A DNA stretch of 38,733 nucleotides from a virus (IMGVR_UViG_2698536454_000017); one strand, 5' to 3'. Positions 1,829 to 18,205 are shown, counted from the first letter of the stretch. The notes: generated by a model not told the origin, from the letters alone. Numbers and translations: made by a program.

Positions 1829-2213
1829 CTAGAAGGGAATTGAATCGTCGTATTCAGGATGATTTTGATGATTGCTACTTTGCTGCTGTTGGCTGTTTCC
1901 TGAAGTTGCAAATCCAATCTTTGCATTCAGTAATTCAAGAGTGATTGATTGACCATTTTGCCCCTGATAAACATCAACCCTGATGTTTTCTCCGGTAATT
2001 TCCACAATGCCACCTTCAACAAGAACACTACGGTAGTAATCCGCTTGCGCTCCCGGCTTGGCAAATACAACGGCGCTGTAGTTTGTCCATTCTTTCTTTT
2101 TTTGTCTGGCGATCGTAATACTGAACGCCAGCACGGATGTTGAATCCGATATTTTCCCCGGCCTGAAACTCTCTTGCGGGCTTGTTTAGTCTTACAGTAA
2201 TCGAATGTGCCAT
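1829..2213 (-). pseudogene. SSB-like (lambda Ea10-type) single-strand DNA-binding protein gene split by a +1 frameshift in a 7-nt homopolymer
   Basis: N-terminal frame (ATG 2213..2211, MAHSITVRLNKPAREFQAGENIGF...) and C-terminal frame (ORF 1829..2134 ending ...PEYDDSIPF, an SSB-type acidic tip) both read through the T7 run at 2097-2103; removing one base joins them into one ORF of about 127 aa. Confidence 0.5.
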
Positions 2214-2818
2214 TAAGCAGCCGCTCCTTCTAATTCGTCTCGTCTGGTGTTGTAAACGTCCTGTGCTTTGTGCTGCTCCGGTGTGCCTTCGAGCATCTTC
2301 CACGCTTTGGCGAACGCCTGTTTAAGCTCTTCTACGGTGTTTTTCTGCAATGCTGCGTCAGTGAATGCTTTTAGAACCTGTTCAGGTGTAGGTGATGGTT
2401 TTGATTGCTTTGCTGCTGCGTTCTGCTGATGTTTATGCTCGTCGGTATCTGCATCTTTCGCATCATCAATGCCGAACAAACCATTGAGGCAATACTTGCG
2501 TGCATAAGAGCTTGTAGCTCCCGTAACTTGTGCAGAATCCATTCCTTTCTTGCTTTCTTCCTCTCGTGCAAGAGCGGTTGCCGTATGGCTGTTTTCGCCA
2601 TCGGTAATAGTTGCCGTGGCTTTCACGTAATACCGATCACCAATCAGCACAACTTCATCGCTGATTGATAAAAACAGGCCATTCAGTAACGGCTTAACGC
2701 CTTCAAGAATGTCTTCGCAGCTTCTGTATTTATATTTGCCGAATGAGTTGTACTGATTCTTTGGCGCGTTCAGATTCTCCTGAATAGCTGCCAGTCTTGC
2801 GTAAAATTCTTTGCTCAT
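2213..2818 (-). CDS. erf: Erf-family single-strand annealing recombinase
   Basis: N-terminus MSKEFYARLAAIQENLNAPKNQYNSFGKYKYRSCEDILEGVKPLL matches recalled P22 Erf; first ATG at 2818 (track start 2848 is TTG). Confidence 0.8.
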   Translation of the reverse strand: MSKEFYARLAAIQENLNAPKNQYNSFGKYKYRSCEDILEGVKPLLNGLFLSISDEVVLIGDRYYVKATATITDGENSHTATALAREEESKKGMDSAQVTGATSSYARKYCLNGLFGIDDAKDADTDEHKHQQNAAAKQSKPSPTPEQVLKAFTDAALQKNTVEELKQAFAKAWKMLEGTPEQHKAQDVYNTRRDELEGAAA

Positions 2819-2899
2819 ATGATTGTTCTCAGAATGGACATGGCCCAAGGAAATAACGCTGATTTAATACTTCGACTCGGGACAAATTAAGGCATACCC

Positions 2900-4200
2900 G
2901 CATTCCTTCGCGGTCGCCATTATGGCGATACCAGAGAGCTTTCTGCGTGTACATGCGTCTCTGTAACTTGCTCTCCTTCACTGTGGTTGCAAGTGACATG
3001 CATATCTCCTTCGTTACCGATTAATTCTTTCATCTGACGAATGAATTCTTTGTCTGACCAGTTATCTTTGACATCCTCCACGCCCTAAAGGGCGTGGATT
3101 CCTCCTTCGAGACGGCGATGTCCCGCCGCGAGAATGTTCTTTGCCGCGTTTACGTCGCGGTCGTGGAGTTCACCACATTCCACGCAGATCCATTCTCTTA
3201 TTCCAAGGCCTACCCTACCCTTCGGACTACTGCAGCTAATAGCTCCGCAGCACGAGCAAGTCTGGGTGGTGTACGCTTCATCTACGACCTCAAAAACCAC
3301 ACTCCGCGCAATCGCTTTATACTGAATCTGATTTTTTAGCTGACACCAGCCGGCGTCGTAGATACTTTTTGCCAAATTTGTTTTTGATAACTTTTTACTG
3401 CTTACGTCGCCTACAAAAATAGCGGCGTATTTATTAACCAGCGCCGTAGAAAACTTATGGTGTGCATCTTTACGGCGATTTTTGATTTTTGCGTGGATAG
3501 CTCTAACACGTTTTTTATTATGGGCACGTTGAGCAATTTTTAATTTGCCTTCTAATTCACGATACCAACGTTTAGCAGGAAGTTTTTCACCATCCGAAGT
3601 GGTGGCAATGTCTTTCAGACCAAGATCGATACCCACGTCGGCAGTGCCTTTAGTTGGTTCGCATTCGTATTCAACTGCAACATTGAAATACCAGCGACCG
3701 CGCGCATCTTCTGCAAAGTTACCAGCACGGAATTTAAAGCCATTTAATCCATAGCTATCCCACACTTTGAAATAGTGCCCGGCAAACTTGATGCAGCCGT
3801 TTACCCATTTCACTTGAGCACCTTTGAACGGAACCCAACCAAGACTACGCCCAGCACCGCCACTTTTACGCCAGCGCAGCTTACTGCGTTTAAACTGTTT
3901 ACGCGCTTTAGCGTGATGTTTTGAGATTTCCTGACAAGTAGCTGCTTGTATGTGGTATCCGCGCTCCTTTTGAATACCAGCAATGCGTTTATCTACGTCA
4001 AATTCAGTTAACCAAACTCTTTGTTTTGGTCCGTATTCGCTGACAGTGCTGTATTCAGTCGCAGTCATTTCATTGATAAAGTTAAAAACTTGGTTCACTT
4101 CAAAGGCCATCTGACGCAACAAGGCGGCGTGGCGGTCTTTGACGCGTACCTGCAATGTTTTAGTCTGAATAGCCATTTACTTGCTCCCCTTATTGGTAAA
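2900..4200 (-). mobile_element. IS200/IS605-family insertion element carrying tnpB only (IS1341-like); ends approximate
   Basis: Intact tnpB with no Y1 HUH transposase nearby; perfect hairpin at tnpB stop; located in intergenic position upstream of erf; exact left and right ends not determinable without comparison. Confidence 0.5.
3085..4176 (-). CDS. tnpB: TnpB (IS605 OrfB-family RuvC-like RNA-guided endonuclease), 363 aa
   Basis: Motifs GIDLGLKDIATTSDGEKL (RuvC-I), TTQTCSCCG...CVECG zinc finger, HDRDVNAAKNIL (RuvC-III); GGGGAG SD 7 nt before ATG 4176. Confidence 0.85.
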   Translation of the reverse strand: MAIQTKTLQVRVKDRHAALLRQMAFEVNQVFNFINEMTATEYSTVSEYGPKQRVWLTEFDVDKRIAGIQKERGYHIQAATCQEISKHHAKARKQFKRSKLRWRKSGGAGRSLGWVPFKGAQVKWVNGCIKFAGHYFKVWDSYGLNGFKFRAGNFAEDARGRWYFNVAVEYECEPTKGTADVGIDLGLKDIATTSDGEKLPAKRWYRELEGKLKIAQRAHNKKRVRAIHAKIKNRRKDAHHKFSTALVNKYAAIFVGDVSSKKLSKTNLAKSIYDAGWCQLKNQIQYKAIARSVVFEVVDEAYTTQTCSCCGAISCSSPKGRVGLGIREWICVECGELHDRDVNAAKNILAAGHRRLEGGIHAL

Positions 4201-8122: not shown

Positions 8123-9014
8123 CATATCTAATCTAGCCGAAGCCAGAGAGGCCAGAAGGCTACAACAACCGCATCAAAGCAGCGGTAAGGGGTATGCCTT
8201 GCTGCACCGTAAAATTATGGATGTGCCGTTTTACAAGGACGCAGAAGCTGCGCATCTGTGGGTTCACTTAATCCTCAAAGCAAAGCATACGCCTGAGTAT
8301 GTAATGACTGACGCAGGAGAAATTCTGGTAGGCAGAGGGAAGCTACTTGGCGGTAGAAACTCTCTGGCGTTTGAAACAGGACTCAAACCAGATCGCGTTC
8401 AGTACCTGCTTAGAAAGTTCAAAAAACTCGGCATGATTGACTGGGTTTCACACGGTAAATTCTCAGTTTTCTCGGTAGAGAAATATGACGATTATCAGTC
8501 AAATTTTGTACCAGCAGATTACCAGCAAATTACCACCTCAAAGCCAGCAATACCAATGCCTGCAAGCAATACTGTACCAGCAGATTACCAGCAAATTACC
8601 ACAGATAAAGAATATAATAATATTATCTCTAATACTGACGTATTAGAGAGTACCGCAGCAGACAAAAAGTCTGACAAGAAAAAACCTTCCGTTAGCTGTC
8701 AGGATGTTGTCGATGCTTACCACGAAATCCTTCCTGAAGCGCCAAGAATCCGCGCACTGAATGACAAGCGTAAAAACCAGATCCGAACGTTCTGGCGCAA
8801 AGCCGGAGTGATAACCCGCCAGCTTGACGGGCATGGGTTCACGATGCAGGACTGGAGAAATTATTTGAGCTACGTAGGCGAAAATTGCCGATGGATGTTC
8901 GAAGAGCGCCCAAACCATCAACGCGGAACCGTCTGGCACAAAAAGGGATTTGATTTCCTGCTTAACGATAATACCTACCTGAAAGTTCGTGAGGGTGAAC
9001 ACGATGACCGATAA
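8115..9014 (+). CDS. replication initiator (lambda O / P22 gene 18 functional analogue), 299 aa
   Basis: Position between cII and helicase; GAAGGAG SD; internal iteron-like direct repeats as in lambda O/ori. Confidence 0.65.
8507..8650. repeat. candidate origin of replication: two 30-bp direct repeats (8507-8536, 8573-8602) followed by an AT-rich stretch
   Basis: Exact repeat TGTACCAGCAGATTACCAGCAAATTACCAC twice, 66 bp apart, each with internal ATTACCA sub-repeats; AT-rich 8603-8650. Confidence 0.45.
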
Positions 9015-10440
9015 TTTTTATGCGCCGCCCCATAGCATCGAGGCAGAGCAGGCGGTGATTGGTGGATTGCTTCTGGATGATGACAGCAGTGAGCGCGTCC
9101 AGAAAGTTCTGGCGATGCTGAAGCCTGATTCATTTTACAGCCGGCCACACAAAATCCTTTTCGAAGAAATAACCATAATGCACCGGGAGCAAAAGCCAGT
9201 AGATGGCCTGACGCTTTTCGATGAACTGGAGCGTAAATCGTTAACGGAGTCTGTTGGCGGTTTTGCTTATATCGCTGAGATCGCAAAGAACACGCCAAGC
9301 GCAGCAAACATCGTTGCCTATGCAATGCAGGTTCGTGAAACCGCAATGGAACGCTACGCCATCAACCGCATGACTGAAGCGACGGAATTGCTCTATTCCC
9401 GCAACGGAATGACTGCAACGCAGAAGTACGAAGCTATTCAGGCGATTTTCACGCAACTGACAGACCATGCAAAAACCGGATCGCGTCGCGGCCTTCGCTC
9501 ATTTGGTGAGGTCATGGAAGACTGGGTTAGCGACCTTGAGAAGCGATTTGACCCGTCAGGCGAACAACGAGGAATGAGCACAGGGATCCCATCGCTGGAC
9601 AGGATGCTGTCACCGAAAGGTCTGGTGAAAGGCTCTTTGTTTGTCATTGGCGCTCGCCCTAAGATGGGGAAAACGACGCTATACAGCCAGATGGCAATCA
9701 ACTGCGCAGTGCATGAGAAAAAGCCCGCTCTGATGTTCAGCCTTGAAATGCCAGGTGACCAGATACTGGAAAAACTGGTAGGGCAAAAGTCAGGTGTTAA
9801 CCCCAATATTTTTTACCTTCTGGCGACAAATGACGCTGATGACGGCTATCAGGGTGATTACGATGGTGACTTCAACAGGGCGATCGAAACAGCCAATCGC
9901 TTGAGTGAAATCGACCTGCTTTACATCGACGACACGCCGGGATTATCTCTGGCTCAAATCGTCAGCGAAAGCCGTCGAATCAAGCGAGAAAAAGGATGTG
10001 TTGGCATGATTCTGGTCGATTACCTGACACTAATGACCGCTGAGAAGGCCGATCGCAACGACCTTGCTTACGGCATGATCACCAAAGGACTGAAGAACCT
10101 TGCCAAAGAGCTTGATTGCGTTGTTGTGCTTCTGACACAGCTTAACCGCGCACTGGAAAGCCGAACCAATAAACGCCCATTACCAAGTGACTCACGAGAT
10201 ACAGGGCAGATTGAACAGGATTGCGATTATTGGGTGGGGATCCATCGTGAAGGCGCTTTTGATGACAGCGTTCCTCCTGGTGAAACCGAACTAATCCTTC
10301 GCCTCAATCGTCATGGCAATACCGGCACGGTGTATTGCATTCAGGCAAATGGCGCTATTTATGACACAGACCAACAGTCTGCTGAAATGCGCCGCCGTGA
10401 ACGCGAGGAACCGCAGTCCAAGAAGAAAGGAGGATTCTGA
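9004..10440 (+). CDS. DnaB-family replicative DNA helicase (P22 gene 12-like)
   Basis: Walker A GARPKMGKTT, DnaB-like N-terminus HSIEAEQAVIGGLL; ATG 9004 overlaps upstream stop. Confidence 0.85.
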   Translation: MTDNFYAPPHSIEAEQAVIGGLLLDDDSSERVQKVLAMLKPDSFYSRPHKILFEEITIMHREQKPVDGLTLFDELERKSLTESVGGFAYIAEIAKNTPSAANIVAYAMQVRETAMERYAINRMTEATELLYSRNGMTATQKYEAIQAIFTQLTDHAKTGSRRGLRSFGEVMEDWVSDLEKRFDPSGEQRGMSTGIPSLDRMLSPKGLVKGSLFVIGARPKMGKTTLYSQMAINCAVHEKKPALMFSLEMPGDQILEKLVGQKSGVNPNIFYLLATNDADDGYQGDYDGDFNRAIETANRLSEIDLLYIDDTPGLSLAQIVSESRRIKREKGCVGMILVDYLTLMTAEKADRNDLAYGMITKGLKNLAKELDCVVVLLTQLNRALESRTNKRPLPSDSRDTGQIEQDCDYWVGIHREGAFDDSVPPGETELILRLNRHGNTGTVYCIQANGAIYDTDQQSAEMRRREREEPQSKKKGGF

Positions 10441-10468: not shown

Positions 10469-10500
10469 AGGCCTGCTGGTAATCGCAGGCCTTTTTATTT
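10469..10500 (+). terminator. rho-independent terminator after helicase (tR2-like position)
   Basis: AGGCCTGC-N8-GCAGGCCT perfect 8-bp stem followed by TTTTTATTT. Confidence 0.6.
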
Positions 10501-10739: not shown

Positions 10740-11069
10740 ATGGACGAATCAAGAAAGCAGTTTGAAGAATGGTTTAAAAACAAATATCACGTTTCAAGTG
10801 ACGTGATGAAGATTATGCACATCAAGGTCGAGATTGCATGGGAGGCATGGCAGGCATCGCGAGCAGCTATTGAACTGGATATCGACTGGCCCGAATCGAA
10901 TGACGACTTTTGGAAAGATGGTGAAGAAGGTGCTTATGCGATGGGTTATGAGGATGGGAGAGACAAAACGGTAATTGCAGTAATGAAAGCTATCAGATCC
11001 GCTGGAATTAAAGAGAAGAATTTCGATGAAGCAAATATACATGCTTCGCAACGAAGCAATCAGAAATAA
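10740..11069 (+). CDS. hypothetical nin-region protein (109 aa)
   Basis: ATG with GAGGG SD; acidic soluble protein. Confidence 0.45.
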   Translation: MDESRKQFEEWFKNKYHVSSDVMKIMHIKVEIAWEAWQASRAAIELDIDWPESNDDFWKDGEEGAYAMGYEDGRDKTVIAVMKAIRSAGIKEKNFDEANIHASQRSNQK

Positions 11070-11472
11070 CGCCATAGACGCAATACTCTCACTTCCCATC
11101 GACGACAAGTCACCCCACGAAGTCCACCTTAAAGAACCCAAACGCAGCAAAGCGCAGAATGACCGTATGTGGCCGATGCTGAACGATGTTTCGCGTCAGG
11201 TGCTATGGCATGGTCAACGGCTGGCACCGGAAGACTGGAAAGACCTGTTCACTGCCCTGTGGCTTAAGACCAAAAAACTGGAGCAACGAAGTGTTCCTGG
11301 TATCGACGGTGGCGTTGTCATGCTTGGCGTGCGTACCAGCAAAATGCGAAAGGCCAGCATGACTGAGCTTATCGAAATCATGTTCTGGTTCGGCTCAGAG
11401 CGCAACGTGCGGTGGAGTGATGACTCCCGGCGAGAGTATGAATGGTCACAACGAAAAGGGAAGGCTGCATGA
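11026..11472 (+). CDS. ninB: NinB (Orf-family recombination mediator)
   Basis: Resembles lambda NinB (LDQNRKLWA-like KAQNDRMWPMLNDVSRQV, WHG, SKMR motifs); start 11026 or 11041 uncertain. Confidence 0.65.
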   Translation: MKQIYMLRNEAIRNNAIDAILSLPIDDKSPHEVHLKEPKRSKAQNDRMWPMLNDVSRQVLWHGQRLAPEDWKDLFTALWLKTKKLEQRSVPGIDGGVVMLGVRTSKMRKASMTELIEIMFWFGSERNVRWSDDSRREYEWSQRKGKAA

Positions 11473-11996
11473 CTATCAAATCAAATACGCCGGCACACGA
11501 CAAGGACTGCTGGCAAACGCCGCTTTGGCTTTTTGATGCACTGGATATTGAGTTTGGATTCTGGCTGGATTCGGCAGCGAGCGACAAAAATGCTCTGTGT
11601 GCTCACTGGCTAACTGAGGCCGACGACGCGCTCAATTCTGAGTGGGTAAGCCACGGTGCAATCTGGAATAACCCACCGTACAGCAATATCAGGCCGTGGG
11701 TGGAAAAAGCTGCTGAGCAGTGCATACAACAGCGACAGACGGTAGTTATGCTTGTGCCAGAGGATATGTCAGTCGGATGGTTCAGCAAGGCTCTGGAGAG
11801 TGTCGACGAAGTTCGCATCATCACTGATGGACGGATTAATTTTATCGAACCATCGACGGGGCTGGAGAAGAAGGGAAACAGCAAAGGCTCAATGCTGCTG
11901 ATTTGGCGACCGTTCATCAGTCCTCGACGGATGTTTACTACCGTATCCAAAGCGGCATTGATGGCGATCGGGCAGGGCGTCAGGAGGGCGGCATGA
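11469..11996 (+). CDS. orphan DNA N6-adenine methyltransferase (phage Dam-type)
   Basis: NPPYS catalytic motif (DPPY-class), phage Dam-like N-terminus [13 protein letters not shown]; no restriction endonuclease partner adjacent. Confidence 0.7.
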
Positions 11997-12169
11997 GGCG
12001 ACAGCGACGAAGTATCACCGACATAATCTGCGAAAACTGCAAATACCTTCCAACGAAACGCTCCAGAAATAAATCCAAGCCAATCCCAAAAGAATCTGAC
12101 GTAAAAACCTTCAACTACACGGCTCACCTGTGGGATATCCGGTGGCTAAGACATCGTGCGAGGAAATGA
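11993..12169 (+). CDS. small basic protein (58 aa) with CxxC
   Basis: ATG 11993 with AGGAGG SD; ATGA overlap with methyltransferase stop. Confidence 0.35.
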
Positions 12170-12171
12170 CA

Positions 12172-12573
12172 ATGCTTTTAATTCAACCTGGATTTGGACT
12201 TAGCATCAAAAAAGGCCACATGTTTGGCGAGAAAGAGTCACAACGAAAAATGGTGTCTATCCGGTTGCCATTTATCAGTATTTATTGGCTAAACAGGGAG
12301 GCAACAAATTATTGGTATACATGCGCCAGAGCAGCATTTAACGACCCTGACTGGTTTGTGGAAAACCACCACGCAGTTCGTCAGGCAAAGAGAAAGGCCA
12401 ACATGACATACATGAAGGCGTATCGAAAAGCATGGAAAGAACACCGCGATCGATACCAGCAAGATATGGAAAAGCTTGAATCAGAAAACATGGAATTAAG
12501 ACGAAAGCTTGGTGAAGCAAAACGAGACATTGATGCTTACAAGCGACTTTTTAATGGTGAAAGCCATGCTTAG
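12172..12573 (+). CDS. hypothetical nin-region protein (133 aa; start uncertain)
   Basis: ORF 12130..12573 trimmed to ATG 12172 after AGGAA; C-terminal coiled-coil-like segment. Confidence 0.4.
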   Translation: MLLIQPGFGLSIKKGHMFGEKESQRKMVSIRLPFISIYWLNREATNYWYTCARAAFNDPDWFVENHHAVRQAKRKANMTYMKAYRKAWKEHRDRYQQDMEKLESENMELRRKLGEAKRDIDAYKRLFNGESHA

Positions 12574-12742
12574 TCCATCCCAATCTCTTCAATACCAGAA
12601 AGAAAGCGTCGAGCGGGCTTTAACGTGCGCTAACTGCGGTCAGAAGCTGCATGTGCTGGAAGTTCACGTGTGTGAGCACTGCTGCGCAGAGCTGATGAGC
12701 GATCCGAATAGCTCAATGTACGAGGAAGAAGACGATGAATGA
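12566..12742 (+). CDS. NinF-like small zinc-binding protein (58 aa)
   Basis: CANCGQ...HVCEHCCAEL cysteine pattern like lambda NinF; ATG 12566 overlaps upstream stop. Confidence 0.4.
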   Translation: MLSPSQSLQYQKESVERALTCANCGQKLHVLEVHVCEHCCAELMSDPNSSMYEEEDDE

Positions 12743-13494: not shown

Positions 13495-14004
13495 ATGGAT
13501 GATGTAAAAGAAAAAGATATCCCCGGGTTTGAGGGTATATATAAAGTAACTGAGAATGGAGACATCATTTCATGCCGTAAATCAAAAAAATTATCTCATG
13601 GTATTAAACCAGGAGGATATGCATTTGTCGGTCTATATCCAGGTGGCGGGAAAAGACCATCATATAAAATGGTTCACAGAATTGTTGCAGAAGTATTTGT
13701 TGATAACCCAGATGGAAAGCCGGAAGTTAATCACAAGGATGGAAATAAACTTAATAATAAAGTTGAAAATCTTGAGTGGGTAACGCGAACAGAAAATGCG
13801 AAACATGGATTTGATTCCGGGTTGCTTGTTCATGGTTTTAATCATCACTTCTGCAAACTAACGCCAGAACAAGTGAAATCAATATATAAATCAAAAGGCA
13901 AATACAGAGATATAGCCAAAGAATTTGGTGTTTGTGCGCAGACAGTGTGCAACATAAAAAACAAATCAGCGTACCGACGTTTTTTGGAGGGGATTGATGT
14001 TTAG
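13495..14004 (+). CDS. free-standing HNH homing endonuclease (NUMOD4-like N-terminus)
   Basis: GFEGIYKVTENGDI (NUMOD4-like), VNHKDGNKLNNKVENLEWVTRTENAKH (HNH); markedly AT-rich relative to flanks. Confidence 0.75.
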   Translation: MDDVKEKDIPGFEGIYKVTENGDIISCRKSKKLSHGIKPGGYAFVGLYPGGGKRPSYKMVHRIVAEVFVDNPDGKPEVNHKDGNKLNNKVENLEWVTRTENAKHGFDSGLLVHGFNHHFCKLTPEQVKSIYKSKGKYRDIAKEFGVCAQTVCNIKNKSAYRRFLEGIDV

Positions 14005-15792: not shown

Positions 15793-15996
15793 ATGTACCG
15801 TATGGACAAAATCAGAGAATGGTTCAGTTACAGCTTCGGAGGACTGACTGCGATGGGTGGCATTCTCTCCCTGAATGACTGGGCTGTCATCATTGGTATT
15901 CTTTGTACTGTCGGCACATTTGGCATCAACTGGTACTACAAGCGCAAAGAGCGCGAGGACAGATTGAATGGCAATGTCACCGGCACTACGAAATAG
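15793..15996 (+). CDS. class II holin (pinholin-like, 67 aa, two TM segments)
   Basis: Hydrophobic segments and charged C-terminus; AAGGGG SD; immediately precedes a SAR endolysin as in phage 21. Confidence 0.65.
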
Positions 15997-16471
15997 CGTA
16001 ATAGCGGCGATAAGTGGCGGGGCTATTGCTATAGCATCTGTGTTAATCACTGGCCCAAGTGGTAACGATGGTCTGGAAGGTGTCAGCTACATACCATACA
16101 AAGATATTGTTGGTGTATGGACTGTATGTCACGGACACACCGGAAAAGACATCATGCTCGGTAAAACGTATACCGAAGCAGAATGCAAAGCCCTCCTGAA
16201 TAAAGACCTTGCCACGGTCGCCAGACAAATTAACCCGTACATCAAAGTCGATATACCGGAAACAACGCGCGGCGCTCTTTATTCGTTCGTCTATAACGTG
16301 GGCGCAGGCAATTTCAGAACATCGACGCTTCTTCGCAAAATCAACCAGGGCGATATCAAGGGCGCATGTGACCAGCTACGTCGCTGGACATACGCTGGCG
16401 GTAAGCAATGGAAAGGGCTGATGACTCGCCGTGAGATTGAGCGTGAAGTCTGTTTGTGGGGGCAGCAATGA
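15968..16471 (+). CDS. SAR endolysin (T4-lysozyme-like muramidase with N-terminal signal-anchor-release domain)
   Basis: N-terminal SAR segment [17 protein letters not shown] followed by lysozyme motifs ([23 protein letters not shown]); matches recalled phage 21 R. Confidence 0.8.
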
Positions 16472-16905
16472 GCAGAGTAACTGCGATTATCTCCGCTCTG
16501 GTTATCTGCATCATCGTCTGCCTGTCATGGGCTGTTAATCATTACCGTGATAACGCAATCGCCTACAAAGAGCAGCGCGATAAGGCCGCATCCACAATTG
16601 CTGACATGCAGAAGCGTCAACGTGATGTAGCAGAACTCGACGCCAGATACACAAAGGAGCTTGCTGATGCTAACGCGACTATCGAAAGCCTCCGTGCTGA
16701 TGTTTCTGCTGGTCGTAAGCGCCTGCAAGTCGCCGCCACCTGTGCAAAGTCAACGACCGGAGCCAGCAGCATGGGCGATGGAGAAAGCCCAAGACTTACA
16801 GCAGATGCTGAACTCAATTATTACCGTCTCAGAAGTGGAATCGACAGGATAACCGCGCAGGTTAACTACCTGCAGGAGTACATCAGGACTCAGTGCCTGA
16901 AATAA
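16468..16905 (+). CDS. Rz: i-spanin (Rz)
   Basis: N-terminal TM then coiled coil; ATG 16468 with GGGGG SD, ATGA overlap with endolysin stop. Confidence 0.7.
16667..16852 (+). CDS. Rz1: o-spanin (Rz1) embedded in +1 frame of Rz
   Basis: Lipobox LVVSAC followed by proline-rich segment; AAAGGAGC SD before ATG 16667. Confidence 0.6.
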
Positions 16906-16983: not shown

Positions 16984-17463
16984 ATGACCCAGCATATTGG
17001 CGTAAAACTGATTAACGCCTTTCCGATGACGAGACAGGCATATAACGATTTTCGTGGCTGGCAGCTTCCTGCCGGAGAAAACGGCGAGGACGAAGGCTAT
17101 CTGGTTGAATATCTGGATGGCGGGAAACCTAACACCGATCGCTTTGATGGCTACGTTAGCTGGAGTCCAAAAGAAGTATTCGAAAAGGCTTATCGTCCGG
17201 TATCAGGACTAAGTTTCGGCCTTGCCATGGAAGCGTTAAAACAGGGCAAAAGTTTGCAGCGGGCAGGATGGAATGGGAAAGACCAGTTTGTTTATCTCGT
17301 GAAAGGGGAAAAATTAGCGTCTGCGTTGGGTTATGGCTTTGGCGAATATGTTGGCGAGCCAACTTTCAATGACACGCTTGTATTGAAAAACTCACAGAAC
17401 CGCCTTGCTACATGGGTTCCATCCATTGGCGACCTGATGGCTGAAGACTGGCAAATCATTTAA
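16984..17463 (+). CDS. two-domain protein with C-terminal DUF2829-like (Tad2-like) domain
   Basis: C-terminal half LAMEALKQGKSLQRAGWNGKDQFVYLV ... DLMAEDWQII matches recalled DUF2829 signature; N-terminal 75 aa unassigned. Confidence 0.5.
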   Translation: MTQHIGVKLINAFPMTRQAYNDFRGWQLPAGENGEDEGYLVEYLDGGKPNTDRFDGYVSWSPKEVFEKAYRPVSGLSFGLAMEALKQGKSLQRAGWNGKDQFVYLVKGEKLASALGYGFGEYVGEPTFNDTLVLKNSQNRLATWVPSIGDLMAEDWQII

Positions 17464-17764
17464 CCATGTAGGCATTACAAAGCCTATCTACTGGTGGGCT
17501 TGATAATGAAACCGGATTTATTCTGGGTAACCAGTTACGGCAGTACAGCGAAACAACCCAAGCCAGAAAGTGGGGAAATAACACTGGCAGCCACTGAAAG
17601 ATGAACCTCCAGCCTTATGGCAAAAAAGATTCTTTGTGGTGGCGGACTGATGGAAAGACATCGGTTATTGCAGAGGCCATTCAATGAGTGGTCTCGACAA
17701 TGGCTTATACCCTACACGGGATAACTTAACTGATATCCCTTTTAACGGATAAACGGAGCCAACA

Positions 17765-18007
17765 ATGGCAGAGATTATTCCCATGACTGAAGAACAGAAA
17801 TTCCAGTTAGAGATTTACAAGCTGGTCATGAACCAGAACGCAGCCGCAGAGGAAGCATTTCAGTTCATTGGCACTGACGAACTGAAGCTTGAGCTATTCA
17901 AAATTCACTTCCAGTCAGGCGGCGCTAATTCAGATATCACGACCCGCACTATCGAAGCGGTGCGTAAATCGAAGGAAGCGTTAGACCTGTTCACCACCGG
18001 AGCATGA
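17765..18007 (+). CDS. hypothetical protein (80 aa)
   Basis: ATG with GGAG SD 8 nt upstream. Confidence 0.4.
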   Translation: MAEIIPMTEEQKFQLEIYKLVMNQNAAAEEAFQFIGTDELKLELFKIHFQSGGANSDITTRTIEAVRKSKEALDLFTTGA

Positions 18008-18205
18008 TGTGAGCCGCGTAATCAATTTGGGTAAGGAGAAGAAATTCCCAATTACTCAAGAGCTATACGAGAGGCTGGAAAGCGTCATCCATGATTACGA
18101 TGGTGAAATCAGTTTATGCGAGGCGATTGGCGCACTCGAATTGCTGAAGCAGTCACTGATTGAAAGCGCGAAAGAGTCATCAGCCTGAAATAACAAATAA
18201 GTGAG

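Follow-up and report, generated by a model that had tools for sequence, protein, structure and literature searches.

The locus described here is a standard block of the mosaic lambdoid nin region, in which an orphan methyltransferase gene lies between ninB and ninE. The methyltransferase is of the ordinary small, adenine-specific kind found in Shiga-toxin and other lambda-like phages; it and NinE both belong to named, catalogued families, and the locus is already known. The explanation that we prefer, with a probability of roughly 0.8, is that the enzyme would serve as a solo GATC methyltransferase that tops up the work of the host Dam, NinE being an independent gene. The window, that is, the whole stretch of viral DNA analyzed (38,733 nucleotides, IMGVR_UViG_2698536454_000017), represents a mosaic P22-like/lambdoid E. 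coli phage that over long stretches is closest to phiv205-1, E212, CUS-3 and HK620.

The three genes follow one another closely on the plus strand. The ninB (orf) gene, encoding a recombination mediator, occupies positions 11026-11472, and its TGA (11470-11472) overlaps the ATG of the methyltransferase gene at 11469 as ATGA. The methyltransferase open reading frame (11469-11996, 175 aa) ends in a TGA (11994-11996) that overlaps the ATG of ninE at 11993 in the same manner, and ninE itself (11993-12169, 58 aa) closes with a third ATGA at 12166-12169. The first-pass annotation had described a methyltransferase bearing an NPPYS motif and joined by ATGA overlaps to NinB upstream and to a small ORF downstream; reading of the sequence bears out both overlaps as well as the motif, which is encoded by AAC CCA CCG TAC AGC at 11670-11684. 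A Shine-Dalgarno-like sequence, AAGGGAAGG, ends 4 nt before the methyltransferase start, a start codon that RefSeq annotators have also chosen, and a perfect AGGAGG (11982-11987) within the 3' end of the methyltransferase gene lies 5 nt before the start of ninE. Downstream are an ORF of phrog_1511 (12166-12573, plus strand; E = 1.2e-86 over residues 3-135) and then ninF (12566-12742, plus strand; PF05810, E = 1.8e-12). The phrog_1511 ORF likely starts at ATG 12172, which gives a protein of 133 aa whose C-terminal half resembles a coiled coil; it matched no family in Pfam or NCBIfam, and occurs in VT1-Sakai as well as Stx1 phages, whereas lambda and VT2-Sakai lack it. An antisense ORF (11603-12127, minus strand, 174 aa) is annotated as hypothetical in NC_004913 (Stx1_p134). 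We considered it and rejected it as probably not a gene: it matched no Pfam family, and in diverged orthologues the stretch without stops becomes shorter.

The three genes are real, with family matches far beyond chance. NinB matches PF05772 with E = 4e-48 (positions 1-131 of 131), NinE matches PF05322 with E = 1.2e-43 (147 bits against a cut-off of 25, positions 1-58 of 58), and the methyltransferase matches PF05869, 'Dam', with E = 6.4e-65 (218 bits against a curated cut-off of 28.1 bits, profile positions 1-167 of 169). The methyltransferase also matches, at full length (positions 1-165 of 165), the NCBIfam equivalog model TIGR01712, 'phage N-6-adenine-methyltransferase', with 266 bits where the cut-off is 97 bits. 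It falls within phrog_111, 'DNA methyltransferase', and is annotated likewise in related phages.

At the protein level the enzyme does not differ from two annotated relatives, being identical over 175 of 175 residues to orf32 of VT2-Sakai (NP_050531) and to the product of the phi24B 'dam' CDS (17559-18086). Since orf32 is the sole methyltransferase annotated in the whole VT2-Sakai record, this identity makes the protein almost certainly M.EcoVT2Dam, the enzyme cloned as 'VT-2 dam methyltransferase'. A 299-aa ORF near int of VT2-Sakai encodes a DUF551 protein and not an enzyme of the MT-A70 type. Forde et al. (PMC6602927) give GATC as the target of M.EcoVT2Dam, citing Radlinska and Bujnicki (2001). 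N6-adenine methylation at GATC may be carried over to the protein in the window from this literature on the VT2-Sakai enzyme, as the two are almost certainly the same protein. The order ninB, methylase, ninE and its ATGA overlaps are likewise shared with VT2-Sakai and phi24B. However, the surroundings differ: the block lies here in a P22-like/HK620-like mosaic phage and there in Stx phages, and an extra phrog_1511 ORF precedes ninF here. In phi24B (L163:424-660) and VT2-Sakai (L164:293-535), a Lar-like restriction-alleviation gene lies just upstream of ninB and overlaps its start, whereas in the window this position is held by an ORF of phrog_343 (10740-11069) that has no Pfam match.

The methyltransferase carries the sequence features of the (D/N)PPY family. 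Its catalytic motif IV (N68-P-P-Y-S72) is invariant in 34 homologues and in the HP1 and T1-like enzymes, and it is preceded, at residues ~15-38 (11517-11582, plus strand), by a 'WQTP' segment that resembles motif X and an 'F-x-LD-x-AAS' segment that resembles motif I, with T17, P18, L33, D34 and A37 invariant. The order TP, LDxxA, NPPY would be that of the gamma class, as judged from the alignment and a structural model; the LDxxA segment is presumed to bind AdoMet, an assignment that derives from this motif order and concerns a part of the model (residues 33-41) where confidence is low. The same core is found in HP1 Dam (M.HinHP1Dam) and T1 Dam, which are the founding members of PF05869 and are also small orphan phage enzymes; both are reported to be GATC-specific (Piekarowicz & Bujnicki 1999; Schneider-Scherzer et al. 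1990; cited in PMC7556043). Identity to the HP1 enzyme is 36% and to the T1-like enzyme 33%, and the alignment keeps T17-P18, L33-D34-x-x-A37 and N68-P-P-Y-S72 as well as conserved central and C-terminal residues, although the T1-like enzyme has N-terminal and internal insertions relative to the enzyme described here. The HP1 gene lies in the early operon of a P2-like phage and the T1-like gene in a lytic phage, neither with nin genes.

The name 'Dam' refers to specificity and not to ancestry: the methyltransferase is not related to the E. coli or T4 Dam. Those alpha-class enzymes share with it the reported GATC target, the N6-adenine/AdoMet chemistry and the Rossmann methyltransferase fold. 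However, a Pfam scan gave no match of the methyltransferase to PF02086 (MethyltransfD12), the E. coli/T4 Dam family, and the separate DNA-recognition domain of that family is missing as well. A sequence search of the PDB detected no relative among solved chains. An AlphaFold2 model built on the 34 homologues (mean pLDDT 73, pTM 0.76), in which residues 1-5 and 33-41 are of low confidence, has a compact Rossmann-type core. Foldseek returned weak matches only, and the structure comparison scores of the model were 5.8 for E. coli Dam and 4.7 for T4 Dam. In these comparisons 123-138 of the 175 residues align with the catalytic domains of much larger methylases, which would leave no space for a target-recognition domain of its own. 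As modelled, the enzyme is a minimal catalytic core that most resembles M.TaqI and HsdM.

A scan that covered neighbouring and other large ORFs in the window found no restriction-endonuclease family, in agreement with the first-pass annotation, which had described the methyltransferase as having no cognate restriction enzyme. The neighbours are NinB, NinE, the phrog_1511 protein, NinF, a Rha/ANT antirepressor, a NUMOD4 and HNH_3 endonuclease, a YbcO-like protein and RusA, and with no cognate restriction endonuclease adjacent to it the methyltransferase is an orphan. The NUMOD4 and HNH_3 gene (13495-14004, plus strand) is free-standing and homing-endonuclease-like, and lies within the nin region between the Rha/ANT antirepressor gene and that of the YbcO-like/phrog_131 HNH protein. 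As it is missing from the VT2-Sakai and phi24B contexts in which the identical methylase is found, it probably entered as a mobile insertion.

Upstream of the nin genes, 29 nt past the stop codon of the P/DnaB-like helicase ORF (8989-10440), a strong hairpin resembling an intrinsic terminator occupies 10469-10492 on the plus strand, and with its T-run extends to 10502. It has an 8-bp stem with 6 GC pairs (arms AGGCCTGC...GCAGGCCT) followed by the tail TTTTATTTGG. The hairpin lies at the position of lambda tR2, and lambda biology suggests that it may act as a terminator. Its location upstream of the methyltransferase gene would place that gene in the delayed-early rightward operon, to be expressed only after N-type antitermination, in lytic growth or upon induction.

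Expressed at that time, the enzyme would top up GATC methylation on phage DNA, which replicates fast and is left incompletely methylated by the host Dam. In lambda and P22, the virion DNA is known to be under-methylated by the host Dam (PMC8022706). With its GATC sites fully methylated on leaving the cell, progeny DNA would be shielded from restriction enzymes that recognize GATC-containing sites but fail to cut them once the adenine is methylated, and it may also escape nicking by MutH. An anti-restriction role is plausible and in line with reviews, which discuss phage orphan methylases as a 'Trojan horse' (PMC12707154). The methyltransferase would act alone in this scheme, NinE being an independent and non-essential nin gene that is merely the next cassette, and the ATGA overlaps would follow from the tight packing and translational coupling usual among nin genes. 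The nin genes are non-essential, and the region is dispensable for plaque formation (PMC10695390).

Several points speak against this explanation. GATC is about two-fold under-represented, with 88 occurrences in the whole window against 151 (from composition) to 180 (from a Markov model) expected, so methylation is not the phage's only strategy; GATC depletion is a known trait of enterobacterial phages. E. coli hosts, moreover, already have Dam, and what would be gained from a second GATC methylase is not obvious. As a separate observation, CTAG is about three-fold under-represented in the whole window (13 vs. 39).

The main rival to protection from restriction is that the methyltransferase serves the prophage in a mainly epigenetic or regulatory capacity, acting through GATC methylation on the stability of lysogeny, the frequency of induction or the timing of gene expression. 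We consider this unlikely. In lysogen cultures the phi24B dam product was found by immunological means, and the study proposed that it supplements the host Dam in maintaining lysogeny (PMC3342100); the same paper cites a requirement for host Dam in stable 933W lysogeny, and according to reviews, regulation of the viral cycle may be the role of many orphan methylases of phages (PMC12707154). However, a gene behind a terminator in a delayed-early operon should be silent in a repressed prophage, and lysogen cultures always contain spontaneously induced cells. Dispensability of the nin region for plaque formation (PMC10695390) also counts against a regulatory role, and no GATC-controlled phage promoter was identified in this analysis.

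We also examined whether the methyltransferase and the small protein encoded next to it form a functional pair. The first-pass annotation had presented the latter as a small, basic, cysteine-containing protein that was uncharacterized. The protein is indeed basic (17 K+R vs. 5 D+E) and has one CxxC (Cys13 and Cys16), but it is not novel, as it belongs to the named family NinE (PF05322; phrog_288) and is 91% identical to lambda NinE. In addition to the full-length profile match, it retains all residues of the core that is invariant in an alignment of 24 members (R5, S7, P20-T21, S24-R25-N26-K27, P32 and E34-S35; PTKRSRNK...P.ES). The CxxC does not define the family: in the 24-member alignment both cysteines are replaced in many homologues by M/L-type residues (for example, IAMDNLIF for IICENCKY), and H45 and H54 are likewise replaced in many. 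A zinc-ribbon or other CxxC metal-binding protein was therefore rejected, there being only two cysteines rather than four conserved Cys/His ligands. The AlphaFold2 model of NinE consists of short helices at low confidence (pLDDT 67, pTM 0.25), and was excluded from the fold search.

NinE was first described in lambda and P22, where it belongs to the same family and occupies the same place before ninF; the gene upstream of ninE is ninD in those phages, whereas here it is the methyltransferase gene. The family forms 127 clusters at 90% identity. A profile search for distant relatives among 1.84 billion representatives returned 62 representative clusters, and none of these contained an informative domain partner; the larger NinE-domain proteins are fusions to adjoining genes (ANT, Lar and a baseplate fragment). 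Where a source is named, it is nearly always Escherichia, Salmonella or Enterobacter. Two NinE proteins 93-94% identical to that of E. coli (P0141 and P0171) are credited by NCBI to Mycoplasmopsis bovis and Listeria monocytogenes, and most likely derive from contaminated assemblies. NinE is dispensable, no function has been assigned to it (PMC10695390), and only one low-confidence two-hybrid match is on record (PMC3224144).

Among the closest 80 IMG/VR loci for each gene, the methylase gene is found upstream of ninE in 74 of 76 NinE loci and ninE downstream of the methylase gene in 78 of 80 methylase loci, but these loci are copies of one module that are 97-100% identical, and the sample is thus biased to near-identical copies. 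Farther afield the association dissolves. In phage records, the upstream neighbour of NinE may be NinD (lambda and P22-like Salmonella phages), NinC, NinB or the methylase, and diverged NinE genes of Salmonella and Enterobacter prophages lie in NinB-(NinD-like)-NinE-NinX-NinF arrays that lack a PF05869 gene. Methylase orthologues with 64-80% identity are followed by NinF-NinG-Q in Pectobacterium, by nothing related in Yersinia and by ORFs of unknown nature in Providencia; in these three genera, neither NinE nor NinB is a neighbour. HP1 and T1-like phages carry the methylase with no nin genes at all. The methylase family is present in 2030 phage records, including HP1 (orf13), HP2 ('dam') and T1-like phages ('Dam'), compared to 430 for NinE. 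Across the phylogenetic range of the family, then, the two do not co-occur as an obligate pair would.

These observations bear on the proposal that the methyltransferase and NinE constitute a two-subunit enzyme, in which the basic NinE would supply or modify nucleic-acid recognition, much as in the MT-A70/PNB-2 system. The methyltransferase has only 175 aa, most of them (123-138) alignable to the catalytic cores of larger methylases, and its coupling to ninE through an ATGA with a strong Shine-Dalgarno and the near-constant adjacency among the closest relatives would fit such an enzyme. A partner-dependent phage methylase also has a precedent (PMC10810198). Nevertheless, we regard the proposal as very improbable. 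The orthologues with 64-80% identity and the HP1 and T1-like enzymes manage without NinE, while NinE stands beside NinD, NinC or NinB in phages that have no methylase and is confined to the 62 representative clusters against the 2030 phage records with the methylase. The ATGA overlaps are real, but a functional pairing does not follow from them, as each gene is widespread without the other. That such overlaps are general in the nin region has long been known (Kroger & Hobom 1982 and Cheng et al. 1995, cited in PMC8022706), and because they are the rule there, the coupling is not specific to this pair. The reading of the first-pass annotation holds in broad terms, but makes too much of the coupling and of the cysteines.

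Proteins that join the methylase to NinE (P0002 and P0022) were considered as Rosetta-stone evidence and set aside because their sequences contain +1 frameshifts. Both genes are also fused to unrelated neighbours, the methylase to CII, RusA or NinB, and the frameshifts or deletions in their sequences, typical of decaying prophages, mark the database fusions as products of decay in cryptic prophages or as errors of assembly. Slightly less credible again is the more specific notion that NinE is a dedicated accessory subunit that tunes the target of the methylase, switches it between DNA and another substrate, or inhibits it until late infection. If this were true, it would be the first function for NinE, 40 years after it was named.

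The MT-A70/PNB-2 system does not explain the locus either. In that case, an MT-A70 methylase of a Stx prophage, annotated as a GATC enzyme, was found to prefer 16S rRNA when bound to a small partner (NAR 2023; PMC10810198). M.EcoPA8orf6770P and PNB-2 resemble the present pair in that a prophage-borne gene, annotated as encoding a GATC adenine methylase, is transcribed together with a small neighbouring gene. However, it is a different gene, an MT-A70 methylase with a DPPW motif, a locus near int, an upstream winged-helix partner and a 16S rRNA substrate, none of which is found here: the methyltransferase has no MT-A70 match in Pfam, its motif is NPPY, and its upstream gene is NinB. The MT-A70 case does serve as a caution against trusting specificities derived from over-expression assays (PMC10810198).

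The methyltransferase in the window is also intact. It retains all 45 columns that are invariant in the 34 aligned homologues, and comparison to the Pectobacterium, Yersinia and Providencia orthologues gave pN values of 0.14-0.25 against pS values of 0.77-0.87 (synonymous sites being saturated), which argues for strong purifying selection because pN is far below pS. An inactive relic or mis-annotated ORF, the former an outcome that the first-pass annotation had named as fatal to its reading, is therefore the least credible alternative of all: many truncated or fused methylase copies do exist in cryptic prophages and methylome surveys often find the methylases of prophages to be silent (PMC4659465), but this copy is full length, under selection, and identical to the cloned VT2-Sakai protein, which is reported to be an active GATC methylase (PMC6602927).

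The block is common. The methylase and NinE DNA block matches 421 phage records, and annotated copies with ~97% identity are found in Stx1 and Stx2 phages, VT1-Sakai, PA28, mEp213, ECP1 and many others. A 701-bp segment spanning both genes matches 2171 of 5426 complete E. coli genomes (~40%), with at least 80% of the segment covered in 1521 of the 2171, and PGAP labels it 'phage N-6-adenine-methyltransferase | NinE family protein'. The nin region of a Salmonella prophage carries a cytosine-C5 orphan methyltransferase (PF00145; L175:3892-4638) after RusA, together with a diverged NinE and no PF05869 gene, which suggests that orphan methylases have entered nin regions repeatedly.

Two further genes of the window were observed in the course of this analysis. 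An ORF of 363 aa in the early-left arm (3085-4176, minus strand), adjoining an ERF-family recombinase gene (2213-2848, minus strand), matches OrfB_IS605 (E = 1e-12) and a Cas12f1-like TNB domain (E = 3e-21); by these matches it is TnpB-like, a phage-borne gene for an RNA-guided nuclease of the IS200/IS605 type. An ORF of 159 aa (16984-17463, plus strand) with a Tad2-like Thoeris anti-defence domain (PF11195, E = 6e-22) directly follows the lysis genes for lysozyme (15968-16471) and Rz (16456-16905).

For annotation, the outcome is a routine one: a mosaic P22-like/lambdoid phage carries the common ninB-methylase-ninE block. A Dam-type activity can also be a liability to the phage that encodes it, as Dam activity triggers Retron-Sen2, a retron-based abortive infection system (bioRxiv 10.1101/2020.06.22.160242). 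Phage GATC methylases are of practical interest with regard to retron abortive infection, methylation-sensitive cloning and restriction barriers.
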